Positions 2,163 through 47,100 of a stretch of DNA of 64,000 nucleotides are shown here, one piece after another. The position numbers were made by a program, and so were the translations under genes. This stretch comes from Candidatus Nanoarchaeia archaeon (lineage in GTDB: Archaea; Nanobdellota; Nanobdellia; Woesearchaeales; JANQNC01). The stretch covers positions 594,154 through 658,153 of the forward strand of contig JANQNC010000001.1 of NCBI GenBank assembly GCA_028279745.1. Direction: 5' to 3'. Numbering within the stretch: position 1 is the first letter of the stretch; each line of letters begins with the position of its first letter. The notes under the pieces are model-generated. The model searched no databases, was not told the DNA's origin, and saw only the letters and a program-made list of their open reading frames with translations.

Positions 2163-2244
2163 GATACCCCTCCTCTTTTTTAGCCATCACTCTAAGGACT
2201 TCTGTATTTAAATGTTTGGATAATGAGAATTTATAAAAAAAAGA

Positions 2245-2356
2245 GGACAGCTTCCAGCATTTCCCGTTCATGAGAACAGTACAGTACTGAACGGAGGATT
2301 GCTTAACTTCCGTGTTCGAAATGGGAACGGGTGGAACCAAACCCCTTTGGCCGTCC
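2245..2356 (-). rRNA. 5S ribosomal RNA
   Basis: The reverse complement contains the universal 5S core CCACCCGTTCCCATTTCGAACACGGAAGTTAAGC and a GGGAAATGCTGG helix-IV/V-like segment. Its termini, GGACGGC and GCTGTCC, pair as helix I. It is not linked to 16S or 23S genes. Confidence 0.8.
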
Positions 2357-2378
2357 ATTATTGAGGAATAATAAATCC

Positions 2379-11857: not shown

Positions 11858-13626
11858 TTTTCGTATACTGTATAATCTGTGAAGTCTCTCTTTATAAATC
11901 CATAGCTTGATAATGCTTCATCTATCTTTGCAGGCGTTTCTATCTCTCTACCTTTATTTGCTATGAAAACAAATACTTTAGCTTGAGAAGATATTTCAAC
12001 CAATCCAGGCAGATCATTAGCCAAGAAAGGATTAAGATATGCTCCAGGAATAAACCTAGAGTAAGTTCTTACCTTCTTAGGTTCAGATTCCTCTTCAAGA
12101 ATGAAAGTATTAAACATAAACGAATCGGGACTGTACTGGAACTGAGGTCTTGAAGGATCAAACTTGATGTAACTTACTGAATACCTGTTTTCCTCAAGTT
12201 TGGCTTTCTTGTATTGTTTTAGTTCTGCTGCTGTGTTAAAAATAGGCATGCTATCTTTATTTTCACCTTTCATCTTTGCAATTAAAGATTTTGTCAGAGA
12301 GATTGCTGCAATCTGAGGTTTTTCGTGAATAAAGTCTCCGCTATCATAACAACATTCTAGATTAACAAGGAAAATAGGGCCTGCGGCAGTTGAAACATAT
12401 TCAAATGCATCCCTGTTAATGTCTCCTTTTGCATGTTTGATCACAGAGGTAAAACCTATGTTAAGCAATAGCAAAAATATTGTGATTAATATAAAAAATA
12501 TCATAAACAAACTCTTCAGATTAATCTTTTTACCAAGCCAAGAAAAGAAAATGTGCATTCCTTTAACCGTAAATAGGGCAACAAAAGGTATAACATGCAT
12601 TATGTATCTTAGCTGTCTGTTTGAAATCAAGAAAGTTGAAAGTATAATTATGGTTAGGACAAGGAAAACCATCTCTTTATTTTCTGATATGAAACTGTCT
12701 TTCTTCTTGAAGAACAGTATGAAAGGAATCAAAGCGAATAGTGCCAGGAAGAATGTTTCAAAAGTTAGCTGTATTGGGAAGTGGAAAAGCCAAGCAAGAC
12801 CAGAACCTCTCCCTTCAGATACCCCCTGCCAAAGAAGCTGCTTGTAAGTCTCGAACTTGATAAGACTAAACCAGACCCAAGGCAAAGTGATTATGAAAGT
12901 AATTACTAATTGAATTATGAACTCTTTTATCAGCTTAAATGGTTGGTGTTTCCTAATGAATAAGAATATTGCATATGCTAAAATGAATGCAGCTGCAAAA
13001 ATAATTGATTGATACCTTATTAGGAAGGCCAGTGCTAAGAATATCCCTCCGATGAATATTGAAATGCTTCCCAGGCTTACTTTTTTGTTGTTTATGTTGA
13101 TTGCAATCCTTTTTGAGCCTTTAATAAATGTGAAATAAAACCACCCCAAGAAGATGTAACTTACTGATGTATCAACCATAGAATCTCTGTTGAATAAGAA
13201 GATGTAAGGAATCAAACTGCATAGGATGACTGTGCAGTAAGCTAGAAGTTTATTGTTGAAAACTTTTTTTGATATAAGATAAAGGAATATTGAACCTATA
13301 ACGAAAAAGAACATCGAAGGCAGTTTTGAAGCGTATTCATTGGGGCCTGCTATAAGGAAGAAAAAAGATTGTGCTATTGCGTGTAAAGGAGGATCATGTA
13401 ATACATAAAAACCTATAGCTTGCTTTTCATTATATGCTTCCATAAAAGATTCAACACCCATAAAATTACCTTGGAGTATGTTTGAAAAATACTTATAGAA
13501 GAAAACACCTTGGTTTGCGTGTCTTGACTGATCATAACCAAGATTAGAACTTATATTAATATGAAAAAGACCCACAAAAATAACTAAAATAAAAAATAAA
13601 ACTAAAAATTCTTTTTTAATCTTCAT
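11854..13626 (-). CDS. GT-C-fold membrane glycosyltransferase-like protein
   Basis: The 590-aa product has a polytopic N-terminal half and a soluble C-terminal domain. Confidence 0.45.
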
Positions 13627-16600: not shown

Positions 16601-16895
16601 TGAAAAAGCTGGTTACTCCTTTAAGGTCAACAGAAACTTCTTCATCTTCAGACTTAGTTTCAACTTTATGTTCTGGTTTTTGTTCTTTGTGCTTTTTAGA
16701 TTTTCCTTTGAAAATTTTCTTGAAATCTATAGTGATCTCTTCCTCATCAGAATCAACTTTTTTATCTTCTTTATGCTTTTCGCTAGCTTCAGAATGCTTT
16801 TTATGCTCTTCAGTACTCAATGTATGACACCCCCAATATTTAGCTAAAATATCGACACTGCATTTATAAAGGTTATGATTGGCATATATAAACAA
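13626..16895 (-). CDS. aglB: archaeal oligosaccharyltransferase AglB (STT3) with C-terminal parvulin (PpiC) PPIase domain
   Basis: It has a polytopic TM domain, a DPYLWY motif in the first external loop, and the catalytic WWDFGHW motif (WWDYG family) at about 14974-14987. The last roughly 95 aa read HILINL...[43 protein letters not shown], a clear parvulin signature. The N-terminal 100 aa are Lys/Glu-rich. The ORF opens on a TTG. Confidence 0.85.
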
Positions 16896-21678: not shown

Positions 21679-23088
21679 CTATTTCTTAAACACTGCAAAG
21701 TATTCAAAAACACTTGAAGTGTTGTATAATAATTCTGAGCTGTCTGAAAGACGATTGAACTCTTCTCTTTTCATCACTTCACATTCTTCATCCACACAAG
21801 GGAAAGTGGAGCTGGAGAAAACAAAAAGATTATAGGAACTAGATTCGTTAAGGAACAGGTCTACGCTTGTAGGCAGATCAAAATATCTCCCATAAAACTT
21901 TTGATCTGTGCAAGGCACAACAATGGCAGTTGTTGAGAAAAGAGAATACTCTTCATCGTAACTGCTGAAAAAACTGCAAAGGTTTGTGTGAGCAGTATCC
22001 ATCTTTCCAAGGAAACCATACCCTAAAATAAATGAGTTAACCAGTATAAATACAACTACTGCGAAGACCAGCAGGTTGCTTATCCACTTAGACTTCCTTT
22101 TTATGAAAAACATGAGCTCATCCAAAGAGTGAGCAACCATTATCGTAATGAAAGGAAGGAACAATAAACCATACCTAAACTCTTTATGAGACAGCCAAGA
22201 AAAGTAGACTGTCAAAAATATTGCCGCAGTGACAAACAAATCAAAAGAAAAATCTTCGTGGAGCTTATTTTTGAAATAAAAGAAAACAAAAGCGATAAGA
22301 AGAATAAAAATCCAGTTATTAAGGAAAAACTGAACAAAGTAATAATAAAACGGCTGGGAATAGATTGCAATATTGTACCTGGTTATGTCTGCGTTAGCTA
22401 TTATAAACGGCCTTATCATTGAGTCAAAGAAGTTTGCAGTCACATCTCTGTAAAAGAAAATATTGAAAATGAAAAATAGTGAAGCAGGAATTGAGTAAAA
22501 GATTATGAATTTTATTATCTTTCTTATCTTAGCTACTTTGAAGATCATGAAAATTAACAAAGGTATCAACATCAAACCTGACGGAAACCTAATCATAAAA
22601 GCCAATCCTGCAAACAAGCCACACAATCCATACTTTTCTTCCTTAAAGAAGTAAATCGACGTAAGTAAAAGAAAAACTGCAGGTATCCCAGTAAGAAGCC
22701 TATGAGAAAAAGCAAAGAATAGAGGGAATGAAGCCAACAGTAAAACAGACCAGATTGCCGTATTTTTGTTAAAAAACTTCTTTGATAACATATAAGTCAT
22801 CGATAATGCACCAATCGCAAATGTAAGAGCTATCATTCTTCCAAATAAAACTATGGGAATATTTAGTTTCCAACCAACACCCAACAGCAGAGGGAATAGT
22901 ATAGGCCTCATCTCAGAATAAAAACCCGTCTGACCTAAAGAGTATATGAATTTAGCAATACCTATGTATTCATATTCATCGAAAAATAAAGAGTTGTAGG
23001 TTGTAAGAAGGATAATTTTTGCAGTAAGAAAAACAGCTAAAATAGCTACAAAAATCCAGTTTTCCTTGAACCAATTATTCTTCTTCAT
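21679..23088 (-). CDS. GT-C-fold membrane glycosyltransferase (PMT_2/ArnT-like)
   Basis: The 469-aa polytopic product has a first-loop FFDEYEY (DE motif) and a SHRLLTG region typical of PMT_2. Confidence 0.55.
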   Translation of the reverse strand: MKKNNWFKENWIFVAILAVFLTAKIILLTTYNSLFFDEYEYIGIAKFIYSLGQTGFYSEMRPILFPLLLGVGWKLNIPIVLFGRMIALTFAIGALSMTYMLSKKFFNKNTAIWSVLLLASFPLFFAFSHRLLTGIPAVFLLLTSIYFFKEEKYGLCGLFAGLAFMIRFPSGLMLIPLLIFMIFKVAKIRKIIKFIIFYSIPASLFFIFNIFFYRDVTANFFDSMIRPFIIANADITRYNIAIYSQPFYYYFVQFFLNNWIFILLIAFVFFYFKNKLHEDFSFDLFVTAAIFLTVYFSWLSHKEFRYGLLFLPFITIMVAHSLDELMFFIKRKSKWISNLLVFAVVVFILVNSFILGYGFLGKMDTAHTNLCSFFSSYDEEYSLFSTTAIVVPCTDQKFYGRYFDLPTSVDLFLNESSSYNLFVFSSSTFPCVDEECEVMKREEFNRLSDSSELLYNTSSVFEYFAVFKK

Positions 23089-27944: not shown

Positions 27945-28646
27945 ATGAAAGTAAGCTCAGGAAATGAAGCAATTGATAGATTATTGGAAGGGGGGGTTGA
28001 GACAGATGTGATAACTACTGTCTATGGGCCTGCTGGTTCAGGTAAGACAAATATTGCTTTGATAATGGCAGTCAAAGCTGTTTCATCTGGCAAAAAAGTT
28101 GTGTTCATCGATACAGAAGGTGGTTTTTCTATTGAAAGGTTAAAACAGGTCTGCCATGACTATAAGAAAGTACTTGATCAGGTGTTGTTTTTCAAACCGA
28201 CTTCATTCAAAGAACAAAATAATGCGATCGATAAGTTGAAAGGGATACTTAATAATAAGATTGGGTTAGTAATAGTTGACTCAATTGCTCATCTGTATAG
28301 GATCGAGATGGCTGAAAAAGAAGCAATCTATTCTGTAAACAAAGCGATGGGGAAGTCGATTGGGATATTGACTGAAGTTGCCAGACTGAATAAAGTTCCA
28401 GTTTTAGTTACAAATCAAGTTTATTCTGCATTTGATGAAAGAGAGAAAGTAAATATGGTGGGTGGAGATTTACTTAAGTATGGAAGCAAATGTTTAGTTG
28501 AGTTACAGAAAACACCTGAGGGCAATAGAAGGGCTGTTCTTAAGAAACATCGGAGTCTTGCTGAAGAGAAAGACATCGTGTTTAGGATAGTCAATGATGG
28601 GATAAAGGTTACAAAAGAAGGTAAAGGTTTTGGTTTGTTTAAGTAG
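27945..28646 (+). CDS. radB: RadB (RadA paralog, KaiC/RecA-fold ATPase)
   Basis: The 233-aa product lacks an N-terminal HhH domain. Walker A reads GPAGSGKTN. It also carries VVFIDTEGGF and a Walker B VIVDS. Confidence 0.85.
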   Translation: MKVSSGNEAIDRLLEGGVETDVITTVYGPAGSGKTNIALIMAVKAVSSGKKVVFIDTEGGFSIERLKQVCHDYKKVLDQVLFFKPTSFKEQNNAIDKLKGILNNKIGLVIVDSIAHLYRIEMAEKEAIYSVNKAMGKSIGILTEVARLNKVPVLVTNQVYSAFDEREKVNMVGGDLLKYGSKCLVELQKTPEGNRRAVLKKHRSLAEEKDIVFRIVNDGIKVTKEGKGFGLFK

Positions 28647-30057: not shown

Positions 30058-30276
30058 ATGATGGATGAGTATGGGAACGAAATAGAGACTTCTAAAATAT
30101 TTATACCTATCTCGATCTTCGAAGATAGAAGACTTTCTGCATTAGAATCAATCGTTGAATATCTCAAAGAAAAAAGACATCTAACACTACACCAAATTGG
30201 AGTCATGCTCAACAGAGATGACAGAACAATCTGGACAACATACAACAGAGCAAAACAGAAGAGGAAGAAAAGATGA
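30058..30276 (+). CDS. small HTH DNA-binding protein (sigma-70 region 4/LuxR-like helix)
   Basis: The 72-aa product carries LTLHQIGVMLNRDDRTIWTTYNRAKQKRKK, which resembles L..EIA..LG.S..TV..R..RA. It overlaps the next gene by 4 nt. Confidence 0.5.
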   Translation: MMDEYGNEIETSKIFIPISIFEDRRLSALESIVEYLKEKRHLTLHQIGVMLNRDDRTIWTTYNRAKQKRKKR

Positions 30277-32669
30277 AACATCACATAAATAACGCAGTCG
30301 CACTAATGTCGGTCATCCTAATACTTACAAGTTCAGTCTTAGTATACAATAGTGCAGAAAACATGCTAACAGGCTATTCAATCTATGATCCTGATGCAGA
30401 AATCTGCCACCAAAATATTGATTCATGTATTGACTTAGATGGAGATGGAATGGTCGGATCCGGAAGTAATGACGAAACAATATTCTCCTGTTTAATTGAT
30501 GAAAATGGACTGGGTTGTCCTGCAAACGATGCTGAATGGATTACTTTATTTGGAAACAGCAAAGAAAACTTCACAATACTAGCAGACTTTGACAATGATG
30601 GAGGAGTTAGCCAGTTAATAGACTTCCAAAGATGTTACGTGACAATGAGAGACAGAGCGATAGATGAAGGCACTTCCTATAATGTAACATGTAACCTACC
30701 ACAAGACGCAGTTAATGATGAAGTCTGCAGGTTTGGATGTCCAGACCTAAACGGAGATGGATTTGTAGACAAGTATGACTTAGCAATCTTAACCTCAGAC
30801 TCAGTATGGAAAAATGATAGTTTCAACCAAACATATCCTATGGCAGACATGACAAATGATTCTGTTGTAGATTGGGCAGATAGAAACTGTATGAGCCTGT
30901 ACTCAAATGAGTATGCACTATGCAACTTACCAAGACACTTCGAACATGAAAATGTGTATGTGTGTCCTGACTTAGAAAATATTACAACAGACTTAGACAA
31001 TGATGGATTTGTAGGAGTGAATGATAAAGCGTTGTTTGACTCTTACTTCGATGATGGTTTGTCAGTTGTTGACTTCACAGGAGAAGGAGACATCAACTGG
31101 AAAGACAGATGGGTCTTTGATGAATATTACAACTACAAAGCAGGAAGCGAATTCAATCAAAGCGTATTGAAAGTTGTAGGATGTAATTTGTACCATGCAG
31201 CATGGCACACAGGAGGGTTGGATCAGAACATTTCATGGGGGTTCACAGGAAGTGGAGGAATGCCGCAATCGATAAACTTCACCGTATTCGACAGTCCTGC
31301 AGATAATTTCGACTCGATGGGCACAACATATGGATGGCTAACAAAAGCAAGAATAAGAATAGAAGGAAACCCTGCAAATACCAAACCAATAAATGTAACG
31401 CTAATAGAACCTTCAACAGGCAAGACATTAGCAAGAACAGAAATACCTCCATTCGGAGATACAAGATGGGCTACAGCATACTTTGCATTACCACCTTACA
31501 CAAATCCAAGACTAACCAATGGAAGTAATTACACTTTGGTCCTTGATAGTCCTGTAACTGAGTTCTATGAAATACAAGGAGGACACAACTTCCAGACCTG
31601 GATGACAACAGCACATGGAGACTTGAATGGAGATGGAATAGTTGATAGTTTAGATGATCTAATCATATCTGCAATAAACGATAATCTGCAGTTTAATGGG
31701 ACAAGTAACTGGAGTTCAGATTACGATCTTAATAACGATTCAATAATAGACAATCTAGATCTGCAAATATTTGTTGATGCTGTTGGAAGCCCACCAATAT
31801 CTTCACAATCAACAATAAGTGTAGGAAGCTATTCACAAACTTTGCTGAATGGAGGAGGAATAATTCCAAACGGAGGCTTTAGTACATCTAACGGCACGGG
31901 TTGGCCACACAAATGGGTGGATAACCAACCAGATGTGGATGTTCCAACTGACATAAGTGTTGTTTCAGGAGAACTAAACATAACTGTAAACAATAACACA
32001 GGCAGTTTTACAGGTGTAAGAAGTAAAAAACTAAAACTAAAACCAAACACAAAATACAACGTAACTGCAAAAATAAAAATCCCAACCTCGATAACACAAT
32101 TAGATGGAACTTGGGAGCTACACCGACATGCACACAATGGGTTCTGTTCAGGAACGCCCGCTTGTCACGATTACACCTTATTAGGCGGGGACTACAGCTG
32201 GGATAATAGTACTTCTAGAGGGGTATGGCACGACAAATGGTGGACAATTGAAACCGGCGAGAATGTCAAAATAGGCTATGTGTTTGTTATAACAGATGTA
32301 AATGGTGGAAACGGAACAATACTTGTTGATGATGTAAGCCTCCACGAAGTTCCAGGATACGAATGGTTCGGCGGAGCTATAAAACTAAGACAGAAGTTTA
32401 CAGCAAACACAGACTCACCAATAAAAGTTGTTCAGCTAAATCTTGCGATGGATAAAGGAAATGATGATGACATCACTGTCAAGATCCTAGATGAAACGTT
32501 CACCCCAGTAGGAAGCACAGTAATACCTGCACTACACAACAGTACACCAACAATCTACAACGCAACGTTCACTCCTGCAGTTGCAGTTACACAAGACCTA
32601 GATTATTACATTGAAGTAAGTTCGCCAGGAGAATATACAGATTACAGATGGTTCGCAAACTATGACTAA
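30273..32669 (+). CDS. surface protein with four dockerin-like Ca-binding repeat pairs and a CBM4_9-like carbohydrate-binding module
   Basis: It has a signal/anchor peptide. Paired loops occur at DLNGDGFVDKYD/DMTNDSVVDWAD, DLDNDGFVGVND/DFTGEGDINWKD and DLNGDGIVDSLDD/DYDLNNDSIIDNLD. The sequence NGGFSTSNGTGWPHKW...KPNTKYNVTAKIK matches the CBM4_9 pattern. Confidence 0.6.
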   Translation: MKHHINNAVALMSVILILTSSVLVYNSAENMLTGYSIYDPDAEICHQNIDSCIDLDGDGMVGSGSNDETIFSCLIDENGLGCPANDAEWITLFGNSKENFTILADFDNDGGVSQLIDFQRCYVTMRDRAIDEGTSYNVTCNLPQDAVNDEVCRFGCPDLNGDGFVDKYDLAILTSDSVWKNDSFNQTYPMADMTNDSVVDWADRNCMSLYSNEYALCNLPRHFEHENVYVCPDLENITTDLDNDGFVGVNDKALFDSYFDDGLSVVDFTGEGDINWKDRWVFDEYYNYKAGSEFNQSVLKVVGCNLYHAAWHTGGLDQNISWGFTGSGGMPQSINFTVFDSPADNFDSMGTTYGWLTKARIRIEGNPANTKPINVTLIEPSTGKTLARTEIPPFGDTRWATAYFALPPYTNPRLTNGSNYTLVLDSPVTEFYEIQGGHNFQTWMTTAHGDLNGDGIVDSLDDLIISAINDNLQFNGTSNWSSDYDLNNDSIIDNLDLQIFVDAVGSPPISSQSTISVGSYSQTLLNGGGIIPNGGFSTSNGTGWPHKWVDNQPDVDVPTDISVVSGELNITVNNNTGSFTGVRSKKLKLKPNTKYNVTAKIKIPTSITQLDGTWELHRHAHNGFCSGTPACHDYTLLGGDYSWDNSTSRGVWHDKWWTIETGENVKIGYVFVITDVNGGNGTILVDDVSLHEVPGYEWFGGAIKLRQKFTANTDSPIKVVQLNLAMDKGNDDDITVKILDETFTPVGSTVIPALHNSTPTIYNATFTPAVAVTQDLDYYIEVSSPGEYTDYRWFANYD

Positions 32670-35600
32670 AAAAACACAAAATAAAAACATGTTGATGCTT
32701 TTGATAGTTGCAACACTATTTGCAATAACCTCTGTAGATGCTGTCCTAAACTGTACTTCGACAGATCCTTGTGAAATTCCTTTTACAGGCGGACACCCAC
32801 CAGGATTCCCCGCGCCACTAGAAAATTTACAATGTGGAGAGACGTTCTATTATGAATTTGAACTTCCAAGAAACCATAACTGCCAAGCCACAGTAATATT
32901 TGATGTGACTGATGGAGCAAACACCTCAAATAAAATAACATTCGGAGGCGATGATTTATTACAGAACTGTCAGAGAGTAATAACTTCAGCAGACTCACAA
33001 CAATGTGAAAACGTAAACATAAATGTGCCCATGGGAATAGATGAACTATTCACAGTAACTGCAAGCAGACCTGTAGAAGGGACTGAATGTAATAGCAGTG
33101 TAGAGATAGATTACACCTTAGCATATTATGCAACCTGCGCAACTACAAAAGACGGGTGGGGAAAGAATGGAAGTTTTGTAAACACAACTGGTGGAGAATT
33201 TTATTTTGAAACACTAATAGGTGAGGGTGGTAACTTCTCAGGACTGTCTATCTTTGATGTTAACAGCGATAATGTAATAAATGATACAGACTACTATGAC
33301 ATACTTTCAAGAGATGGTGAGCGAGACGGAACATTCTGGACCCCACTTATAGACTTTAACGCACAGTTTGGGGTATATGAAGTACTGCTTGATTATACGC
33401 TGGGATTCAGAGCATACTTAGGAAAAATAGTAAATGGAGCGATGCCAATAAGGTGGTTTATAACACAGGAAAATGATGGACGATGCTCATACGATGAAGA
33501 TAACACAAGCACAGACTGCCACTATTGTAACAACGATGGGTTCTGCGCAATAAACGAATATGAATACTTAGGAGAATCATGCCAAGACTGTAACGGGACA
33601 TTCCCACTAGAACCACAGATGACAGAGTTTGATTCTTGTAGCGAAACAACAGACATGGCAGACGTATTAGATATAGAACACGCAGAAAACTTCACAATAG
33701 AAGGAGAAGAACCAGGATGTAATGACGGAAACATCATGTTCACTCAAGAAATTAATCTAACAAATTCAGGATCAGGATACATACCATTAGACATTAACAC
33801 TTCAATAGACATAATTGACAATTACATAAGCGTAAATACAATAGAAGCACCACAGTTAGAGAAAGAAGCACAGCTGACAATCTACAACAGAACATGGTGC
33901 CACCCAGGAATATTAAAGAATGGTGCAGAATGTGTTGATTGTCCAGTACAAGAGTATGGAGATAAAATAAAATCATTAAACGCAACAGGAATAGCTGATG
34001 CAGACTTACTAACTAATGTAACAGGGCAAAGCTTTACACTAGAACTACAAGCAGAAAACTACACATTTGGGAAATTAACACAAAATAATGTTTACACACA
34101 GCAACAAGTCGGACAGGATAGCCCAATAAGTGTTGAGATAGTATCGGGGGCATTAACAACCAACGCAAGAATAAATATAACAGGAATAAACAAAATAATC
34201 TACCTGCCAAAGATGAACTTGGGAGGAGGACCATCTAAAGTTTATGTTGCAGAAGATGGAAGCACTTACACAGGTGCGGCACTTACAACAATATCAAAAT
34301 CTGCAGCAGATCCAATAAAAGTAACTTCACTTAGTGCAGTGAACACTTCAGGACCTCATGGAAAATCATTCTTCTGGTTCTATGCAGGAGAAACACCTAC
34401 ACTATTCGCAACAATAAATAATGATGGGATCTTCAATGCGACAGGCACAACAACAGTTCCAACACAGGTAAAAATTGTGTATACTGCAGAGTATCCTGTT
34501 AATATCACTCTAGACGGACACCATCTATTCCTACCTTCAACATTCCCCATATCTAATGCTGCATATCCTGCAACAAACAACATAACATACAAAGAAAGAG
34601 ATTTAGTGAATGTTAAAAGAACTCCTGAAAAAGATCTAAGCATAGTAGATAAAGATCCAACTAACTTAACATTTACAGTTCCAGCATTCGGATCAGAACT
34701 AATAACAGTATACGAATCAGAAGACCTAGTCCCAAGCTACAGTAACTTCAACGGAAGCACAACAAACTTCTGTTATGCAAAAGATGAAACGACAACACGA
34801 GAACTATCAATATTTAGAGCAGTCATTGAAGATACATCAAATGCAAAACTAGGATTAGTAAGTTATGCAAACTTTACAAAACTAGACCTTAATAATGAAA
34901 TCATCATGGGTGGAAGCAACAAGACAAAAATAATCTGGATAAACGGAAGCACAAGCGATGAGTTTGAAGGAAAAGCTGCAATAATAACATTCCACAGAAT
35001 GGATATAGTGCACCCACAAATAATGGGAACTGTAACAAATGTAGTTCCAATAAGACATTACGTGCCTCCAGGAGAAACACTATCAGAATTCATATTCTAT
35101 GCGGAACTAACTGGTAGTTCACCAATAAACATAACAATAGTAGACGCAGATAATCCAACAGAATTCCTAAGTGATATAGATAATATCACAATAAGAAATG
35201 GAACACAAGAAGTAAGAATTAATGTAAGTGATCACTTCAGTGATGACGATGTTAATGTGACTGACTTAGAGTATGGGGTTGCGAACCAAACAGGAAGCAT
35301 CAAAGTAACATTTGAGAAAGCAGCAAACGTAGTGACAGCAATAATAAGACCATTAACAAGGTTCTTCAATCCGTTCAGTTTCCAGTTCTTCGTTTATGAA
35401 CCTGGAGTAATTGATGGAGAGTCTGCATTCTCTAATTTCCTATTTGGAAACATACTGCCAGACAGACCACCAATACAAACACAAACAATACTAGACATAG
35501 TGTTCAATGAAGATGAAAACGGAACAATAGACTTATCTGACTACTTCGAAGATCCTGACAACCATCCATTACATTATACTTGGACACCGATAGATGCTGG

Positions 35601-38600
35601 CGGAAATATAACAATACACAAACAAGGAATGGCACAAAGCTTATGGTGGAACATAACTAATGCAACTTACACAGGGAATAACAGCATGACATTCCTACAA
35701 GAAGTTATTGCATTAGTTCAAACAAATACAACCGAACTACTTGCATCTCCAGGAACTTACGGATACATAGTGGCAGCAGGTTATGCAGACCAGACAGCTG
35801 AAGAAGGAACAGACCTACTTAGAATAAACTTCTGGAACACAACAGGAAATGGAATGTCATTCCCAGAAGGAAACATAAGCATAACATATGACAACGGAAA
35901 AGATCTGAAGATATACATACCTGAAGTTACCTATACTGATAGGAATAACTTCTCACTATTCGTATCAAAAGACGGATCAACATACTATGATGAAGGACTA
36001 ACACAGATTGCAAAAGTCTCACCTAACCCTATAGTTGTTCCTAGCTTAGTAATAGAACCAGATAGTGATTGGCACGGCAAGAGAACAATAGTCTTCATAG
36101 CAAACGACACAATACACAAGAAAACAAGCAACAACGTAGACATAATTGTTCATAACCTAAACGATGCACCAAGGAAACACAAAGACATTGATGATATAGT
36201 AATGCTAGAGGGAACTGTTGAGTTTGTTGTAAATGTAACACCCGACTACTTATTCGATATAGACATACCTACAGACACCGAGTTTGAAGCAGATGATGAA
36301 CTAACATTAACATATTCAAAACAGGGCGGCGGTGATGCTGAGTTTATCAACTTAACATTCAGCAATAACGGAGTTTATAGCGTTACAGAAGATAAACCAG
36401 TTAATATAACAGTTAAAGCACTGGATTTCCCATACTGGAACGGGTATGAAGCACTAACAGTAAAAGCAACAGACTCATACGGTAAGAGTGTTGAGACAAA
36501 CTTCACAGTATACATAATAGAAGTACCAACAGATCTTAACAGAACAATACTTCCAGCATACATCCCAATGGTTGAAGATGAAACTTATCCATTTGAACTG
36601 AACAACAACTGGTTTGTGGATGTGGAAGGAGATGCAACCTACAGATACTTCGGATTAAATTCAACAAACATAACAATAGAACTGAATATCGATAGTGGAA
36701 ATGGAACAATCAGAGCAGATCCAGACTGGTTTGGTGTAGCTGTAGTTAATTTCTCAGCATCAGACGCGACAAGCAACGTATCAGATATGTTTGTGATAAA
36801 TGTAACACCAGTAAATGACGCGCCAAGATTATATGGAGACATAGAAGTAAAACCATGGCCAAAAGATGAAAGTTATCTGGTTAATTTATCAGACCACTTC
36901 TACGAAGCATACGGAGAAGACACAAACAGTCTAGTGTTCTCAGACATAGACATAATACCAACACTAAGCACAACCTATCATGAACTAATCGCAAACAGCT
37001 ATACTAGTGAGACTGCAAACATGACCCCTGACACAGGATGGTACGGATCAGGATGGATAACCTTCTGCGCAGACGATGGTCAGTATCAGACGTGCAGCAA
37101 CATAGTAAGACTAAACATAACATCTGACAAACCGCCACAGTTAATATCACCATTCAATAGTCCGGAAATATGGCCAGAAGATAATGTTAACTACATCAAC
37201 CTAGAAGAACACTTCTGGGATGAAGAATTAGGAAGTGAGTTAGATTTCACACCATCACTAATAGGACCATTTGATGGATTCAACATAACACCATACGGGG
37301 AGTTGATTAACAGTAATGTATTACTTAACTTAAGCAACGTAAGAAAAGCAGCATACAACTTAACACTGGGAGGAGGATTCACATTCATAGCAGCAGACAA
37401 CAGTGGAAGATACTTAACAACCGCATATGGAACAAACGGAACACAGACACCAATCTTCCTATTAAGCCCACTACAACACAATGCAAAACCAATCAAGATA
37501 TACAAGACAAGCATGAAAGATCCAAGCTTTGAACTACCTGAAGAGACTTATAATTTAACAGGAAACGCAAACATTAGTGTAAGTTACACAGCTTATGAAG
37601 GAGATAAGTCAAGGAGAGTAGAAAGAAACATCGGAACAGGAATAACAGGAATAACAACAATAGATCCTATACCTGTAGTCAGTAACCAACAGTACACAGT
37701 ATCAGCAGTAATAACAACAGAGAACATAAGAGATCCTGGTGAGTCTGTAACAGTGGCAATAGAATGTGATGGCATAGCAACTGAAGTAGCAATACCAGGA
37801 ATGACAACACAAAAACAAGGACTGACAGATTGGGAGGATTGGGACACAATACAAAGAGTATACAACGTAGGATCAAGCACAGAATGTAGACCAAAATTAA
37901 TAATGGGATCTGGAACACTAGGTACTTTCTGGGCAGATCTATTCAACTTCGATAAGTACTACCCTACCAACACACCTGAAAGAGAGATGTCAATAACAGA
38001 ATCAAGCTTAGAATCAGCAACAGGAGGAGTAGAAGTATTCTTACCTGAACTAAACAACACACTACAAGCAATATACTTAGGAATAGACGGAACAACATAC
38101 TATGATGAAAACATGACAGTAGTTGCAAGAAGATCACCAAACATGGCATTAGTGCCAGACGAACACTGGTACGGCAACAGAACAATGGCAATAATTGCAA
38201 CAGACGGAATGTTTAACAGAACATCAAACAATATAAAATTAAGAATAGAACCAGTAAATGACATTCCAATATTCAAAGGACCAATCCAAAACATACCAAT
38301 GAATGAATCTGAAAGCAGAGCTGTAATACTAAGTAACTACTTCGAGGATGTTGAAGACAAAGTAGATCTAGATTACACACTTATCACAAACACAGAACCA
38401 GGAAACATATTTGTTACCATAAATAAAACTGAAAACGAAACAAACGCAACAATAACGACTGCACCAGGATGGGTTGGGTTTGGAGAACTACAATTTAAAG
38501 CAACAGACTCAAAAGGAGCGTCCAACGAGAGCAATGTGTTCATAGTATATGTTGGCGAGTATTCAGACAAAGTATTCGCAATACCTGGAGCAAATACAAC

Positions 38601-41600
38601 ATACTTCCTGGTAGAAGACCAAGGACCAAAACAGTTCCCAGTCAAAAACAAATACTTCAATGACACAGATGATGATGCAGTTTATTGGTACACAATAGAT
38701 GAAACCAAGTTTAATATGACTGCATGGGACGAAGACGCAGGATTCGGATTCATCAAACCATTACCAGACTATTGTAACTTTGTAAGCTGCACAAACACAA
38801 ACGGATATGACAATATAACATTACATGCACAAGACCCAATATCTGGAATAGTAAACACAACAGTGCAAATGGTTGTGGAATGTGTACCGGACATACCAAG
38901 AATAGAAGACGACATATACATAACCTTCCCAGAAGATACAAACTATTACACACTAATCGAATATGGATATGACCCGGATAAGATATGGGGTTGTGATAAT
39001 GTAACTGTAGAGTATCCAAGCTACGCAAATGTAAGAGTGAATCTATCAACATTCGATGGATTCAACATGAGCTTCCAGCCAGAACCTAACTTCAACGGAA
39101 TAGAGATAATCAATGTTACATTAACAGATGCTTATGGACTACAGAATTCAACAATCGTAACAATAAACGTTACACCAATAGATGATCCAACACAACTTAA
39201 CTGGACACCTTATGGATATACAATACCTGAAGATACTAACTTAACAGAAAACGTAAGCGACAAGATATGGGATGTTGATAACGTATTAACATTAAATGCT
39301 ACATACGATCCGTCAGTAATTGCATCAATAATATTTGAGCCGACCATGACCGTAGTCCCACTGATACAGAATTTCCTACAACAGATGATAGTGACACCAG
39401 TAATGGATTGGTTTGGCTTAACATTCTTCGATGTATATGCTACAAACGAATCAGGAGATGTTGTTGCAAATGTTTCATTGTATCTAAATGTAACACCAGT
39501 CAACGATGCACCAGTATGTGACGAGCAGATTGCAGATCAGGTAATGTGCGAAGATACCTTGCTTGACATACTGATAAATGGAAACATAATAGATGTAGAT
39601 AATGAAACATTAAATTACTTTGCACAAAATTTGACTGCAGGAATTGATAATGTGACATTCTTCAACGGGTGGAGAGATGAAGAAACATTATCAGAAAACA
39701 TACACTCCGTTACAGAATTTAATGATGTGCTTTATGCAGTAGGAGATGATGGATACATTGCAAGATACTATGATAAAGGTAATTGCACTGCAGAGTATGG
39801 ATGGGAGCAGGTAGAAAATACCTCAACTGCCAATGATTTACGAGCGGTCCATGGATACAACGGAATGTTGTTCACAGCAGGAGACAATGGAGAAGTTGAT
39901 GTGTATAATGGAACATGGAACAATGTAAGTAAATTTACAAGTTTAGATCTTCACGCACTGGAAACATACGATAATAAGCTATGGGTTGGAGGAGATGAAG
40001 GAGAGATATGGACATATAATGGAAACAACTGGACCAATATGACTAACTTATTCATCAACAGCCACGTAAGACATCTGAAAGCATTTGACGAAATACTGTA
40101 TGTGGGACAGTCATCAGGAACACACGGAGAAAAAATAGATTATTACAACACGAGCGAATGGAGAAACATAGTTAATGAACCATTAAACGGAAGCATAAAG
40201 GCAATGGAAGAATATGACGGAAAACTATTCGTTTCAGATGATAATGGAAGTATCGCGCACTTAGTTGAAGAAACATGGACATACCTAACAGGAACAAATG
40301 TCAATGACATAGAAAGTATGACTGTCTTTGATGGAATGTTATATACCGGTGGCGCTAGTGGAGAGATCGATAGATTTGATGGCACAGTATGGGAAAACGT
40401 GACAGGAACAACAACAGGGTTCACAACAGAGATGATACCATATAAACACTCCAAATATAACAATAATAGAGATTACCTATTCACATTCTCAAACGGAGAT
40501 GTAGATTCATATACAGGAGGATTCACAGCAGTAATCAATAGTTCAGACAACTGGTTTGGAAATGCAAATGCAACAATAGGCGCGACAGATGGTGAAATGA
40601 ACGGAACATGCGACCCAATCAATATAGAAGTGACACCAGTTGAAGATAATCCAACATTTGTCTCAATGTGGCCATGGATCAACACAGTAAGCATACTGAC
40701 AGAATCATATGATGTTGATAACTTGTACTCATACCTACAGAACTTAACATTAGATGTGTATAATGCAACCATCGAGAACAATGGAAGCTTATTATGTAGT
40801 GGTGTAAATGTTGAAAATGTAAGTTGTGAGTTCCCACAACCTGAAGATAACATGACACACACCGTGTTCGGATACTTATACGACAGCAACGGAAATGAGG
40901 CAGATAACAATCCACTAAATGCAAGCTATGAGTTTAATCCACCTACTGTTAACACAAATGCAGATGAAAGATTCTGGTTCATAGGGGATAATGGAACAAT
41001 CACAATAGGAACAACAGATGATACCGGATTATTGAATATTCAGTACTGCGTAGCAGATTATTATGAAGATGACTGCACAATAAATGAAACTGTTGCAGCG
41101 AGTGGAACTGTGAACTCACTAATACTAAGTGTAGAATGTGCACCTACAGATATAATGTGCAGAACAAAAGTCAAGTTCACAGCACAAGACATCTTCGGAA
41201 ACTATGCAGAAGAAGGAAGTGGAAGAGTCAACATGATATATGGCTCAGAAATCTATAATACCACCGTCAATGAAACAAGAAACGGAGAAAAAGTAGTTGT
41301 GTTAAATGGATCAGTAGTAAACAACTCAAACATAATCAGAAGTCTAGTAAGAAACGTAACATACAACGAAGTGACAATAATAGACAGTGAAGACAAGAAT
41401 AGTGTAACAAGTAATGCTATGATCTTTGTTGATCCATCAATACTAGAAAATAACACATACATAGGACCTAACACTTTGATCAATGCAATAATCAAACACA
41501 GCACAATAGAAGATAGCGATGTAAGAGACTCAGAAGGATGCCACATGATAATAAATGAAAGCACCATAATAAATGGAGCGATAATAAATGGAACTGTGAC

Positions 41601-42660
41601 CTGGAACGGAACAGTCTATAGTGCAGGTGAGCTAACAATAAAAGATGAAAATACAAATTGTGTATTCGATCAGTTCGAGCAAATACAAACACCACCTTCC
41701 GGAGGCGGAGGCGGCGGCGGAAGCTGCACACCTAACTGGGAATGCACAGAGTGGACAGAATGCGGATATTATAGCGGCATAAGGACAAGGACTTGCATAG
41801 ACACAAGAAATTGCAACAGAGACAGACCTGTAGAAAGAGAAACTTGCAGAGGAATACCTGCATGCTCAGACGGATTATGGAACAATGGAGAAGAAGGAGT
41901 AGATTGCGGAGGCAAATGCACGCCTTGTTCAGGTGAAGAAGAAATAACCGGCAGACCAATCATAGAAAGACCTGTAACTCCAATTGAAGAACAACCAGAC
42001 ACAATAGAGCCTCCAGTAGAGGAAGAAACAAAAGTTCCTTGGTGGTTCTTACTACTATTACTATTGTTCATAGTTGCAGTAATAGGATTCATTGCAGCAG
42101 ACATGAGAAAGAGACAAACAGTAATCCCAACAGTTAAAGAATCAGTTACACCAGTAGCAGTAGCTGAAAAACCAAAACAAGGAGTGTTGATGGTTGAGGT
42201 AGAAGAGTTAGAAAAATCAATACAGTCAGTGTTAGGCAGCGGATTTACTGTAGAAGATGTCAAACAAGCACTAATGAGAAAAGGATGGGACGAACAAACA
42301 GTTAACTTTGCATTGAAAGAAGCAGTTATCAAGAAGTATAAACTGCATGAACCTCACGGTGAATTAGAGAAATTAGAAAAATCAATATCATCCGTAGTTG
42401 GACACGGATATACTTGCCAAGACATCAGGAAGTCATTAGTCAAGAAAGGCTGGCCAAGAGATGTGGTAGATGAGGCATTACATGAAACAGTAGTAAGAAA
42501 TGAGAAACTACATGAAGTACATAATGATGTTGAACAACTGGTTAACTCTATCAAAGCAGTAAGGTGTCATGGATATGCTAAGGACGCAATCAAGAAAAAG
42601 CTATTAGATAAAGGATGGCCTCTTGCTAAAGTGAATGAAGCTATGAAAAAAGTTCCTTAA
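32662..42660 (+). CDS. giant (3332 aa) type-I membrane surface protein: cadherin-like repeats, 7-bladed beta-propeller, Cys-rich module, TM helix, cytoplasmic triple repeat
   Basis: A single uninterrupted ORF with signal peptide MTKKTQNKNMLMLLIVATLFAITSVDA. It has recurrent VTPVNDAP, NDIPIF and VEDNPTF motifs (cadherin-like DxNDNAPxF). It has blades of the form hL(Y/F)xxGDxGEIxxYNGTxW (about 39.7-40.5 kb). A Cys-rich module lies at about 41.70-41.94 kb. A TM helix WWFLLLLLLFIVAVIGFIAA lies at about 42.04-42.10 kb. N-x-S/T sequons are extremely frequent. Confidence 0.8.
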   Translation: MTKKTQNKNMLMLLIVATLFAITSVDAVLNCTSTDPCEIPFTGGHPPGFPAPLENLQCGETFYYEFELPRNHNCQATVIFDVTDGANTSNKITFGGDDLLQNCQRVITSADSQQCENVNINVPMGIDELFTVTASRPVEGTECNSSVEIDYTLAYYATCATTKDGWGKNGSFVNTTGGEFYFETLIGEGGNFSGLSIFDVNSDNVINDTDYYDILSRDGERDGTFWTPLIDFNAQFGVYEVLLDYTLGFRAYLGKIVNGAMPIRWFITQENDGRCSYDEDNTSTDCHYCNNDGFCAINEYEYLGESCQDCNGTFPLEPQMTEFDSCSETTDMADVLDIEHAENFTIEGEEPGCNDGNIMFTQEINLTNSGSGYIPLDINTSIDIIDNYISVNTIEAPQLEKEAQLTIYNRTWCHPGILKNGAECVDCPVQEYGDKIKSLNATGIADADLLTNVTGQSFTLELQAENYTFGKLTQNNVYTQQQVGQDSPISVEIVSGALTTNARINITGINKIIYLPKMNLGGGPSKVYVAEDGSTYTGAALTTISKSAADPIKVTSLSAVNTSGPHGKSFFWFYAGETPTLFATINNDGIFNATGTTTVPTQVKIVYTAEYPVNITLDGHHLFLPSTFPISNAAYPATNNITYKERDLVNVKRTPEKDLSIVDKDPTNLTFTVPAFGSELITVYESEDLVPSYSNFNGSTTNFCYAKDETTTRELSIFRAVIEDTSNAKLGLVSYANFTKLDLNNEIIMGGSNKTKIIWINGSTSDEFEGKAAIITFHRMDIVHPQIMGTVTNVVPIRHYVPPGETLSEFIFYAELTGSSPINITIVDADNPTEFLSDIDNITIRNGTQEVRINVSDHFSDDDVNVTDLEYGVANQTGSIKVTFEKAANVVTAIIRPLTRFFNPFSFQFFVYEPGVIDGESAFSNFLFGNILPDRPPIQTQTILDIVFNEDENGTIDLSDYFEDPDNHPLHYTWTPIDAGGNITIHKQGMAQSLWWNITNATYTGNNSMTFLQEVIALVQTNTTELLASPGTYGYIVAAGYADQTAEEGTDLLRINFWNTTGNGMSFPEGNISITYDNGKDLKIYIPEVTYTDRNNFSLFVSKDGSTYYDEGLTQIAKVSPNPIVVPSLVIEPDSDWHGKRTIVFIANDTIHKKTSNNVDIIVHNLNDAPRKHKDIDDIVMLEGTVEFVVNVTPDYLFDIDIPTDTEFEADDELTLTYSKQGGGDAEFINLTFSNNGVYSVTEDKPVNITVKALDFPYWNGYEALTVKATDSYGKSVETNFTVYIIEVPTDLNRTILPAYIPMVEDETYPFELNNNWFVDVEGDATYRYFGLNSTNITIELNIDSGNGTIRADPDWFGVAVVNFSASDATSNVSDMFVINVTPVNDAPRLYGDIEVKPWPKDESYLVNLSDHFYEAYGEDTNSLVFSDIDIIPTLSTTYHELIANSYTSETANMTPDTGWYGSGWITFCADDGQYQTCSNIVRLNITSDKPPQLISPFNSPEIWPEDNVNYINLEEHFWDEELGSELDFTPSLIGPFDGFNITPYGELINSNVLLNLSNVRKAAYNLTLGGGFTFIAADNSGRYLTTAYGTNGTQTPIFLLSPLQHNAKPIKIYKTSMKDPSFELPEETYNLTGNANISVSYTAYEGDKSRRVERNIGTGITGITTIDPIPVVSNQQYTVSAVITTENIRDPGESVTVAIECDGIATEVAIPGMTTQKQGLTDWEDWDTIQRVYNVGSSTECRPKLIMGSGTLGTFWADLFNFDKYYPTNTPEREMSITESSLESATGGVEVFLPELNNTLQAIYLGIDGTTYYDENMTVVARRSPNMALVPDEHWYGNRTMAIIATDGMFNRTSNNIKLRIEPVNDIPIFKGPIQNIPMNESESRAVILSNYFEDVEDKVDLDYTLITNTEPGNIFVTINKTENETNATITTAPGWVGFGELQFKATDSKGASNESNVFIVYVGEYSDKVFAIPGANTTYFLVEDQGPKQFPVKNKYFNDTDDDAVYWYTIDETKFNMTAWDEDAGFGFIKPLPDYCNFVSCTNTNGYDNITLHAQDPISGIVNTTVQMVVECVPDIPRIEDDIYITFPEDTNYYTLIEYGYDPDKIWGCDNVTVEYPSYANVRVNLSTFDGFNMSFQPEPNFNGIEIINVTLTDAYGLQNSTIVTINVTPIDDPTQLNWTPYGYTIPEDTNLTENVSDKIWDVDNVLTLNATYDPSVIASIIFEPTMTVVPLIQNFLQQMIVTPVMDWFGLTFFDVYATNESGDVVANVSLYLNVTPVNDAPVCDEQIADQVMCEDTLLDILINGNIIDVDNETLNYFAQNLTAGIDNVTFFNGWRDEETLSENIHSVTEFNDVLYAVGDDGYIARYYDKGNCTAEYGWEQVENTSTANDLRAVHGYNGMLFTAGDNGEVDVYNGTWNNVSKFTSLDLHALETYDNKLWVGGDEGEIWTYNGNNWTNMTNLFINSHVRHLKAFDEILYVGQSSGTHGEKIDYYNTSEWRNIVNEPLNGSIKAMEEYDGKLFVSDDNGSIAHLVEETWTYLTGTNVNDIESMTVFDGMLYTGGASGEIDRFDGTVWENVTGTTTGFTTEMIPYKHSKYNNNRDYLFTFSNGDVDSYTGGFTAVINSSDNWFGNANATIGATDGEMNGTCDPINIEVTPVEDNPTFVSMWPWINTVSILTESYDVDNLYSYLQNLTLDVYNATIENNGSLLCSGVNVENVSCEFPQPEDNMTHTVFGYLYDSNGNEADNNPLNASYEFNPPTVNTNADERFWFIGDNGTITIGTTDDTGLLNIQYCVADYYEDDCTINETVAASGTVNSLILSVECAPTDIMCRTKVKFTAQDIFGNYAEEGSGRVNMIYGSEIYNTTVNETRNGEKVVVLNGSVVNNSNIIRSLVRNVTYNEVTIIDSEDKNSVTSNAMIFVDPSILENNTYIGPNTLINAIIKHSTIEDSDVRDSEGCHMIINESTIINGAIINGTVTWNGTVYSAGELTIKDENTNCVFDQFEQIQTPPSGGGGGGGSCTPNWECTEWTECGYYSGIRTRTCIDTRNCNRDRPVERETCRGIPACSDGLWNNGEEGVDCGGKCTPCSGEEEITGRPIIERPVTPIEEQPDTIEPPVEEETKVPWWFLLLLLLFIVAVIGFIAADMRKRQTVIPTVKESVTPVAVAEKPKQGVLMVEVEELEKSIQSVLGSGFTVEDVKQALMRKGWDEQTVNFALKEAVIKKYKLHEPHGELEKLEKSISSVVGHGYTCQDIRKSLVKKGWPRDVVDEALHETVVRNEKLHEVHNDVEQLVNSIKAVRCHGYAKDAIKKKLLDKGWPLAKVNEAMKKVP

Positions 42661-42668
42661 GTCAAAAA

Positions 42669-43178
42669 ATGGAAGACATACACAATAAATGGCCCCACAG
42701 ATGGGTAAATTCAAAAGCAGCATCTGAAAACTCTAAACTGCATGGTCTTGGGGTATTCGCTAAAGAAGAAATAAAAAAAGGAGAACTAATCTGCATTCTT
42801 GGAGGAGTTATAGTTCCCAGTTCTGAAATTAAAGAATACTGGGGCAAGATGAGTCATGTGGGGATACAGATCCACGAGGACTTTTTTATGGTTCCCACAA
42901 CAAGAGAAGAGTTAGAACAAAACGGTGTATTTAACCATTCTTGTGAACCAAATATCGGCTTCTTGGAGGATATCCAGTTTGTAGCAATAAAAGATATACA
43001 ACCTGGAGAAGAGTTGGTTTTTGATTACGCATTTAGCGAAACTTTAATGGACCCTTTTGAATGTAAATGCGAGTCTGACAAATGTAGGAAAACAATAACT
43101 TCTAACGACTGGAAAATCAAAGAAATACAAACAAAATATAAAAAATACTTCTCTCCTTATTTAAGAAGAAAAATTTAA
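42669..43178 (+). CDS. SET-domain protein (lysine methyltransferase)
   Basis: It carries GLGVFAKEEIKKGELI, NHSCEPN, GEELVFDY and a post-SET Cys cluster CKCESDKC. It lies 9 nt downstream of the giant gene. Confidence 0.8.
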   Translation: MEDIHNKWPHRWVNSKAASENSKLHGLGVFAKEEIKKGELICILGGVIVPSSEIKEYWGKMSHVGIQIHEDFFMVPTTREELEQNGVFNHSCEPNIGFLEDIQFVAIKDIQPGEELVFDYAFSETLMDPFECKCESDKCRKTITSNDWKIKEIQTKYKKYFSPYLRRKI

Positions 43179-46137: not shown

Positions 46138-47100
46138 TTAAAGGTCCTTAATTCCAAGCTCTTCAATCATGAAGTTGCACTCAGCATCTGGCAAGTTTGG
46201 TGCGTCAACAAGTTTTGCAACTCTTGAGCCTTTCTTACCTTTTCTCAGATAAATCCTGAATGTTGAGTTATGACCAACAATATGTCCTCCGATAGCTTCA
46301 GTAGGGTCACCAAAGAATTGATCTGGCTTTGACATAACTTGGTTTGTAACGATAACACAAACGTTATACATCTGAGCAACTTTAGCTAAGTCATGCATGT
46401 GCTTGTTTAGTTTTTGTTGCCTATCCGCTAGTGTTCCTCTACCCACAAACTCAGCTCTGAAGTGAGATGTTAATGAGTCTACTACTAACACTTTTACGTT
46501 AGTTCCACTCTTGATTAACTCTTCAGCTTTGCTAACTAATAACATCTGATGATCTGAATTGTAAGCTCTAGCAACCTTAACGTTTTTTAGAACTTCATCA
46601 GGATCTAAGTTTGCACCTTCTGCAAATTGTTTGATTCTTTCAGGTCTAAAGCTGCCTTCAGTATCAATATAGATCGTTTCTGATTCAGGATCTTGAAGCT
46701 GAGCAGTTACTGCAATTAAGTGTGCTATTTGAGTTTTGCCCCCACCATAAGGAGCGTAAAGTTCTGTGATAGACCCAGTTTCAAAACCACCACCCATGAT
46801 ATCGTCAAAACTTTGACTTGATGTGGATAGTTTAACTATTAACTCTCTCTTCTTAAGAAGTTCATCTCCTGATTCGAAACCCATCTCCAATGCGTCTCTT
46901 GCAGAAGATATCATCTTTCTTGCAGTTGATTCTGTAACGCCCGCAGCGTCTACCATCTTTCCAGGAGTAGATACAGCAATGCTCATTAAGTTGTCAAAAC
47001 CTGCTCCGACAAGTTTCTCAGCAGTTGCAGCCCCTACACCAGGCAATTCTTGAATTTGTTGTGCTTCAGTCATATTATCACCTTTTTTTTCTTTTTTCAT
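46138..47100 (-). CDS. radA: DNA repair and recombination protein RadA
   Basis: It has an N-terminal HhH (ELPGVGAATAEKL), Walker A (GGGKTQ) and VLVVDSLTSHFRAE. Confidence 0.9.
   Translation of the reverse strand: MKKEKKGDNMTEAQQIQELPGVGAATAEKLVGAGFDNLMSIAVSTPGKMVDAAGVTESTARKMISSARDALEMGFESGDELLKKRELIVKLSTSSQSFDDIMGGGFETGSITELYAPYGGGKTQIAHLIAVTAQLQDPESETIYIDTEGSFRPERIKQFAEGANLDPDEVLKNVKVARAYNSDHQMLLVSKAEELIKSGTNVKVLVVDSLTSHFRAEFVGRGTLADRQQKLNKHMHDLAKVAQMYNVCVIVTNQVMSKPDQFFGDPTEAIGGHIVGHNSTFRIYLRKGKKGSRVAKLVDAPNLPDAECNFMIEELGIKDL

Follow-up and report, generated by a model that had tools for sequence, protein, structure and literature searches.

Tandem repeats with a predicted three-helix fold in the cytoplasmic tail of a giant nanoarchaeial surface protein and of many other surface proteins

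The sequence considered here is a window of 64,000 bp (the whole stretch of DNA that was analysed) from contig JANQNC010000001.1 of a Candidatus Nanoarchaeia archaeon, in which one uninterrupted open reading frame (ORF) encodes a giant type-I surface protein. The tail of this protein, the 185 amino acids (aa) that follow its transmembrane helix, carries three tandem repeats, each of which is predicted to be a small three-helix bundle, and the same repeat is found on many surface proteins that are otherwise unrelated. An initial annotation of the window had read the repeats as UBA-like modules on the cytoplasmic side of an adhesin.

Organization of the giant surface protein

There are just two hydrophobic segments by Kyte-Doolittle (KD) hydropathy in the whole of the giant protein, one in the signal peptide and the other the transmembrane helix (Table 1). 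The ectodomain between them, of about 3100 aa, contains 122 N-x-S/T sequons where 44 would be expected from composition-preserving shuffles, a 2.75-fold excess, and Asn and Thr together make up 20% of its residues, which would imply that this surface protein is very heavily glycosylated; an AglB/STT3 gene is present elsewhere in the window. The NCBIfam tandem-95 repeat matches the ectodomain with 86 bits over 9 stretches, and there are weak cadherin-like and Big_9 (bacterial Ig) matches. No sequon is present in the tail, which has 14% Lys and an isoelectric point (pI) of 9.2. Because the signal peptide, the distribution of the sequons, and the positive-inside rule all agree, the tail is predicted to lie in the cytoplasm.

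A Cys-rich juxtamembrane module has the pattern CxxxWxCxxWxxC...RxRxC...C, then CSDG..N..E.G.DCGG.C..C. The same module precedes the transmembrane helix and tail in the proteins P0001, P0002, P0004, and P0020 and in contig L084 (51-1322), and a mini-protein of 194 aa consists of a signal peptide, the Cys module, a transmembrane helix, and two repeats. The module has no Pfam match; by eye it resembles a thrombospondin type-1 domain, a reading for which Pfam gives no support and which was set aside.

Table 1. Features of the window, with positions counted from its first nucleotide
Feature	Position	Strand	Detail	Basis or remark
Giant type-I surface protein gene, carrying the tail	32662..42660	+	3332 codons	Single ORF, no interruption
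Signal peptide, N-terminal	32662..32742	+	aa 1-27, MTKKTQNKNMLMLLIVATLFAITSVDA	KD hydrophobic segment aa 11-29; n-h-c pattern from sequence
Extracellular domain rich in N-glycosylation sequons	32743..42036	+		Sequon count against shuffles
Juxtamembrane Cys-rich module	41725..41928	+	aa 3022-3089, CTPNWECTEWTEC...RTRTC...C then CSDGLWNNGEEGVDCGGKCTPC	Sequence reading
Single transmembrane helix	42040..42099	+	aa 3127-3146, WWFLLLLLLFIVAVIGFIAA, then DMRKRQ	KD scan; helix at model residues 8-34 of the AlphaFold2 (AF2) tail model
Low-complexity cytoplasmic linker, transmembrane helix to repeat 1	42100..42195	+		Predicted local distance difference test (pLDDT) below 50 in the AF2 tail model
Repeat 1	42196..42360	+	Three-helix core aa 3182-3221, linker KKYKLHEPHG	Alignment, BLASTP, AF2 tail model
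Repeat 1-repeat 2 junction	42319..42387	+	23 aa, EAVIKKYKLHEPHGELEKLEKSI	Invariant in P0001 and P0002
Repeat 2	42361..42525	+	Core aa 3237-3276, linker RNEKLHEVHN	Alignment, BLASTP, AF2 with 115-sequence alignment
Repeat 3	42526..42657	+	Core aa 3292-3331, reaches the C-terminus	Alignment, BLASTP
5S rRNA gene	2242-2358	-	Stands alone	Rfam, 69 bits
Flippase-like gene	5013-6305			
PMT_2 gene	11854-13626			
AglB/STT3 oligosaccharyltransferase gene	13626-16895	-	1089 aa	
Alg9-like GT22 gene	21679-23088			
Short RadB-like Rad51/KaiC-type ATPase gene	27945-28646	+		Flanks the giant gene region
798-aa ORF	30273-32669	+	Overlaps the giant gene start by 8 nt	Weak dockerin-like and DUF4082 matches
SET-domain protein gene	42669-43178	+	Starts 9 nt past the giant gene stop codon	
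Full RadA gene (HHH_5 and Rad51)	46138-47100	-		Flanks the giant gene region

The three tail repeats

Repeats 2 and 3 are, respectively, 49% and 36% identical to repeat 1, with 12 columns invariant, and pairwise BLASTP gives E values of 2e-20 for repeats 1 and 2 and 3e-11 for repeats 2 and 3, a similarity that as judged from sequence is far beyond chance. The initial annotation had placed three tandem repeats in a cytoplasmic tail behind the transmembrane helix, and this is borne out by the BLASTP results, by the sequons and Lys content of the tail, and by the charge on the two sides of the transmembrane helix across the family. The length of 45-50 aa that it gave to the repeats needs correction, as the actual period is 55 aa and the last copy has 44 aa. 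Its consensus fits repeats 1 and 2 well and repeat 3 less well, and the start that it set, at 42108, falls on the first residues after the transmembrane helix, whereas the repeats proper begin at 42196.

In the window protein, aa 3146 is the last residue of the transmembrane helix and aa 3182 the first of the repeat 1 core, and a single residue separates the last core from the stop codon. Repeat 3 is the most basic of the copies (net +7), while repeat 1 is acidic. Tandem Repeats Finder detects no DNA-level repeat in the tail, and the triplication would therefore be ancient. No further copies are found in any frame of the window with a hidden Markov model (HMM) made from the three repeats.

A family of tail repeats

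An exhaustive HMMER search with the three-repeat profile against 1.84 billion cluster representatives returns 372 representatives at E ≤ 1e-3, of which 27 reach E ≤ 1e-10. After two local rounds of profile refinement, 149 of the 150 top matches bear the repeat and these, together with the window protein, are the 150 proteins scored here. They contain 466 repeat units, with the hit-set consensus KLKKYIKKALKKGYSKEEIKKALLKKGWPEEIVDKALKKV and the family consensus L..YI...l.kG(Y/F)(S/T)..eIk.aLl..GW.eevVD.al. The family, referred to as the DPANN GW three-helix tail-repeat, is defined by the profile A2, L..YI....kG(Y/F)(S/T)...I(K/R)..L...GW....(V/I)D. The three window repeats score 36-47 bits each against the iterated family HMM and have an S in helix 1 where the family has Y.

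The number of copies ranges from 1 to 13, with three in 64 proteins and two in 55, and the period is mostly 43-64 aa. In 100 of the 150 proteins the layout is that of the window protein, with a transmembrane helix, a median gap of 29 aa, and repeats that end a few residues from the C-terminus; the gap to the first repeat is typically 10-60 aa in the family. The repeats are N-terminal in 10 proteins, ahead of 1-6 transmembrane helices, and in 34 no transmembrane helix is found, some of these being gene fragments and others soluble proteins that are complete from an initial Met. The side of the membrane helix that bears the repeats has a mean net charge of +2.1, against -0.2 for the opposite side. 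The ectodomains, which are unrelated to each other, include DUF2341 with LamG, MopE Cys motifs, NosD/beta-helix, PKD, Big_7, InlB B-repeat, and beta-propeller sequences. The repeat belongs to a large family whose main use is as the extreme C-terminal cytoplasmic tail, usually with 2-3 copies, of single-pass surface proteins that differ widely in their ectodomains. Where the organism is named, members belong to Candidatus Woesearchaeota or Nanoarchaeia.

Two members differ from this layout. P0016 (833 aa) is a soluble, highly basic, coiled-coil-like repeat protein with six tail repeats at its end, and P0007 (517 aa) crosses the membrane several times and has at its N-terminus five repeats, which match DUF494/Smg as well, at 45 bits. 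Each is a candidate component of a scaffold of the kind considered below.

Pfam scans of the family repeats and members find no family above threshold other than borderline RecX_HTH1 sums in multi-repeat proteins, and no dedicated Pfam family was found. Literature searches on DPANN and Woesearchaeota surface proteins and on RecX-like or UBA-like archaeal membrane proteins likewise turned up no description of the tail. Word-indexed homologue searches gave no matches for the tail and one 80-aa protein for the family alignment, and a scan of genome contigs with the tail found no relative. The arrangement had been put forward as one not known in archaeal surface proteins. As far as can be told it is indeed undescribed, but it is not peculiar to the window adhesin, since at least 372 clusters carry the repeat, mostly behind a transmembrane helix.

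Predicted fold of the repeats

In the AF2 model of the tail alone there is a transmembrane helix, a disordered linker of about 25 aa, and three helix-helix-helix units with pLDDT of 75-89 and non-helical linkers between them. When repeat 2 is modelled with the family alignment A2 (115 sequences), helices are predicted at residues 3-16, 21-31, and 35-47, with a mean pLDDT of 82.9. The predicted repeat is a three-helix bundle of about 40 aa with a Gly-aromatic loop after helix 1, which agrees with the fold proposed initially, and the bundle prediction is solid. The three bundles are predicted to be joined by short linkers, as beads on a string, after the disordered linker.

When the family profile is compared with the sequences in the PDB, the best match is the designed miniprotein HHH_rd4_0518 (8skx), with an E value of 5.7e-8 over 41 columns that include all three helices. 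This natural archaeal repeat family matches a designed protein better than it matches any natural protein of solved structure, and its sequence is close to that of an idealised three-helix bundle. The match supports the bundle fold of the tail repeats; 8skx is, however, artificial, and the resemblance is one of idealised sequence pattern, not of ancestry or function.

The top 50 PDB neighbours of the single-repeat model in Foldseek, none of which is significant, are three-helix domains of helix-turn-helix (HTH) type (IstA, LuxR/GerE-type, DeoR, Tc3), Pex14-N, and the RecX structure 3e3v (TM-score 0.59, root-mean-square deviation 2.6 Å, 46 columns). There is no UBA domain among these 50. The whole-tail model retrieves generic helical-repeat proteins alone, at E > 0.18, and does not retrieve RecX.

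Relationship to RecX and UBA sequences

In Pfam, RecX_HTH1 is the first match of the isolated tail, with 35 bits against a gathering score of 26, and falls to 22.1 bits when the full-length protein is used. The UBA family (PF00627) matches the isolated tail with 21.3 bits (E 2.4e-4), below its gathering score of 22.4, and the full protein with 12.5 bits. When 115 diverse family repeats are scanned singly (E ≤ 0.01), 23 match RecX_HTH1/2/3, eight match RepB_primase_C, five match UBA, and one matches UBA_6. The RecX equivalogs of NCBIfam are the top matches for the tail and for small family members, often collinear across two to three repeats, with scores of 16-33 bits against cut-offs of 146-350 (for the tail alone, at most 28.8 against 146-266). 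The IMG automatic name of the orthologue P0002 is OraA/RecX, and that of one small member is YceG. DUF7376 was considered as the family of the tail and rejected, as its match is below threshold (25 against 27 bits) and does not recur in the 115 repeats or in 30 family members scanned.

Comparison of the family profile with PDB sequences gives RecX 3c1d at E 0.002, aligned over positions 6-42 of 44, and the UBA domains of CBL, a Ubc enzyme, EF-Ts, and MARK4 at E 0.02-0.07, aligned over helices 1-2 only. With hhalign, A2 matches E. coli RecX at 86.7% over 40 columns, on RecX repeat 2, and E. coli EF-Ts, which holds the UBA-like TS-N domain, at 0.2%. The remaining UBA comparisons are weaker evidence: 91.7% for the UBA of c-Cbl, 71.9% with a 3-residue gap in loop 2 for a seven-sequence UBA alignment, and less than 30% for five of seven canonical single UBA sequences.

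RecX consists of three tandem three-helix repeats of about 50 aa (PMC2500204). The tail shares with RecX (PF21982/PF02631/PF21981; PDB 3c1d, 3e3v) this tandem organization, typically in three copies, and the pattern ..kG(Y/F)....I...L...G(I/W).....(V/A)..a(l/m), and RecX is the best curated sequence match. RecX is, however, a soluble bacterial inhibitor of the RecA filament, of 150-270 aa and usually encoded beside recA, in which the repeats pack into a rigid curved rod with a conserved basic concave face that binds the groove of the filament. The window repeats are the membrane-anchored tail of an archaeal protein of 3332 aa; their linkers are flexible, and the turn between helices 2 and 3 has a Trp that is nearly invariant. 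The equivalog scores are far short of the cut-offs, and the similarity may reflect a shared small fold alone. The likeness to UBA domains (c-Cbl, HHR23A) lies in a three-helix bundle of about 40 aa with similar helix spacing and a Gly-aromatic loop after helix 1. The Gly of this loop is 95% conserved in the family, the next residue is Y/F in 65%, and helix 3 has A/V then L/F/I. In UBA domains this loop (MGF/MGY) and the hydrophobic end of helix 3 make up the ubiquitin-binding patch. Ahead of the Gly stands K/R/Q/H where UBA has M/L, which gives K/R-G-Y in the tail against M-G-F, and loop 2 of the tail is longer and contains G-W.

The tail module is not a RecX orthologue. On these comparisons the closest known sequence relatives are the tandem three-helix repeats of RecX, with UBA about equally distant, and we read the repeat as a small three-helix bundle of generic type that in sequence lies on the boundary between the two, leaning to RecX/HTH on the curated models and the (non-significant) structural neighbours. 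The initial UBA-like label is partly right: a three-helix prediction and weak UBA profile similarity are both found, which favours it as to fold, while as to family membership and function it is wrong or at least unsupported, the Pfam match being sub-threshold. What is rated as new is the finding of small RecX/UBA-like three-helix bundles in a recurrent and new architectural role.

Conservation and constraint

Orthologues of the giant protein are P0001 (2646 aa), P0002 (2954 aa), the more distant P0004, and contig L084; a metagenome scan yielded one short orthologous contig. In the repeats, identity to P0001 and P0002 is 79% and 65%, against 52% and 47% in the last 600 residues of the ectodomain; the tail is the best-conserved part and is under stronger purifying selection than the ectodomain. 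The repeats pair one-to-one across the orthologues (1-1, 2-2, 3-3), and each copy has therefore kept its own identity since before the lineages split.

The junction between repeats 1 and 2, which holds KYKLHEPHGELEKLEK with an H-E-P-H motif, differs in L084 by a single conservative E to D change from the sequence that the window protein shares with P0001 and P0002. Possible readings of this junction are a short linear binding motif and a metal site. Similar His-containing linkers, DIFEPHN and DLHKPHED, are present in P0004 and P0009. Across the family, the conserved columns fall in the core and the turns (L, Y/F, I, G, aromatic, I, L, G, W, V/I), the only conserved polar columns being the basic residue after the Ile of helix 2 (81% K/R) and, near the start of helix 3, an Asp/Asn.

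Genomic neighbourhood

The overlapping 798-aa ORF probably encodes a surface protein and is probably transcribed together with the giant gene; no tail repeat is present in it by the HMM scan of the window. In the L084 locus the SET gene is absent, with two small reverse-strand ORFs in its place, and ribosomal protein S2 is still syntenic. An exact look-up of the SET protein gave no match.

RadA of the window shares 62-72% identity with the RadA proteins of its 80 best genome matches. Where these matches are named by lineage, they are from Nanoarchaeota, Woesearchaeota, or Nanoarchaeia, except for a set of metagenome-assembled genomes labelled "uncultured Methanosarcinales archaeon". As the tail is RecX-like, a functional link between it and the RadA and RadB-like genes on either flank was considered; their proximity was judged to be probably coincidental.

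The AglB/STT3 oligosaccharyltransferase has a C-terminal fusion to a PPIC-type peptidyl-prolyl isomerase, which seems unusual, and lies in a glycosylation cluster with the flippase-like, PMT_2, and Alg9-like GT22 genes. No tRNA was found in the window.

Possible roles of the tail

The tail module lies in the cytoplasm, is folded and multivalent, and occurs throughout the lineage, both on many kinds of surface protein and free in the cytoplasm; it is also more constrained than the ectodomain. Because of this combination of properties we infer, with about an even chance of being right, that the tail is a cytoplasmic protein-docking or anchoring module common to many surface proteins. It would be a multivalent protein-protein docking module that ties the membrane anchor of the surface protein to a cytoplasmic partner or scaffold. 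Candidate partners would be the soluble multi-repeat proteins of the same family, through homotypic or heterotypic contacts, and such a tether would retain adhesins at the membrane, set their position there, or gather them into clusters. RodZ offers an analogy. It is a single-pass type-II membrane protein in which a cytoplasmic N-terminal HTH of Xre type binds the MreB cytoskeleton, and in it too a small helical HTH-like domain beside a single transmembrane helix docks a protein, not DNA. RodZ differs in its type-II orientation and its single N-terminal Xre-type HTH, and the comparison is one of analogy alone, with no sequence relationship claimed.

Several points weigh against the docking role. 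The partner is putative, and no binding surface common to the family is evident in the conserved columns. The predicted template modelling score of the AF2 tail model is 0.45, which makes the mutual orientation of the bundles unreliable, and Foldseek finds no PDB neighbour of the single-repeat model with E < 1. The lineage distribution is based on a handful of named proteins. A lineage-wide version of docking in Woesearchaeales-type DPANN archaea, in which dozens of different surface proteins per cell are held by this RecX/UBA-like tail on a common sub-membrane scaffold with the soluble multi-repeat proteins, is considered unlikely.

The same layout might be produced by a passive anchor, in which folded basic bundles without any partner act as a stop-transfer signal and as a mechanical stopper against the transmembrane helix being pulled out under load. 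The position of the module on the positive-inside side, directly behind a single transmembrane helix, is in keeping with this, as are the confinement of family-wide conservation to structural positions, the variation in copy number, and the adhesion-type ectodomains. The tails nevertheless outdo the ectodomain in conservation, and have distinct repeat identities and an invariant 23-aa junction, which is more constraint than a plug needs, and complete soluble proteins made of repeats alone exist; a passive anchor therefore seems unlikely. That the tail is a sorting tag, recognised by a system for membrane trafficking or secretion (ESCRT/vesicle loading or polar targeting, for example) that delivers surface proteins to one site, would account for one C-terminal module on many different surface proteins of one lineage, and there is a formal analogy to C-terminal sorting signals. 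It has no direct evidence in its favour, the module is far larger than known prokaryotic C-terminal sorting signals, and it is also found at the N-terminus of multi-pass proteins and in soluble ones, all of which makes a sorting tag very unlikely.

The sequence relationships suggest two further functions, each of which is held to be very unlikely. The initial annotation had envisaged bundles that bind ubiquitin-like modifiers (SAMP/Urm1-type) or the NAC/nascent-chain machinery, and such a reader function draws on the Pfam and PDB matches to UBA, on the hhalign results for c-Cbl and the small UBA alignment, and on the conservation of the Gly-aromatic loop and of hydrophobic positions in helix 3. 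Those matches are, however, sub-threshold or restricted to helices 1-2, single repeats match UBA-type models in 6 of 115 cases against 23 of 115 for RecX, most canonical UBA sequences and EF-Ts score poorly, K/R/H stands ahead of the Gly, and UBA is missing from the top 50 Foldseek neighbours. No gene for a ubiquitin-like protein or an E1-like or JAMM protein was found in the approximately 30 window ORFs scanned, and nothing in these results supports SAMP/Urm1 or NAC coupling. A RecX-like function, with the tail binding DNA or a RadA filament and tethering nucleic acid or the recombination machinery to the membrane, would fit the rank of RecX among the curated matches, the three tandem three-helix repeats of about 50 aa that both have, the charge of repeat 3, the pI of the tail, and the presence of the RadA and RadB-like genes, one on each flank, no more than 4 kb from the giant gene together with its upstream partner ORF. 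Against it are the equivalog scores, a mean charge per family repeat of just +1.1 (standard deviation 3.6) with an acidic repeat 1, and the absence of RecX among the neighbours of the whole-tail model, whose predicted non-helical linkers differ from the compact rod of RecX. The sole orthologous locus is too short for a test of the proximity to RadA and lends it no support, and the presence of the module on hundreds of unrelated surface proteins fits poorly with a regulator of recombination.

Implications for the surface proteins of DPANN archaea

DPANN archaea depend on contact with host cells, and giant surface proteins are prime candidates for making that contact. If the tail module is just a structural stopper, its value is mainly one of annotation. 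It could be used as a sequence tag with which to catalogue the surface proteome of uncultured organisms, and it deserves a domain model of its own. A conserved cytoplasmic module on hundreds of unrelated surface proteins, with more conservation than their ectodomains, is also a possible bait for intracellular partners. Were the surface proteins to dock on a common scaffold, this would be a membrane skeleton for wall-less ectosymbionts, one that anchors, clusters, or signals from the adhesins with which they contact their hosts.

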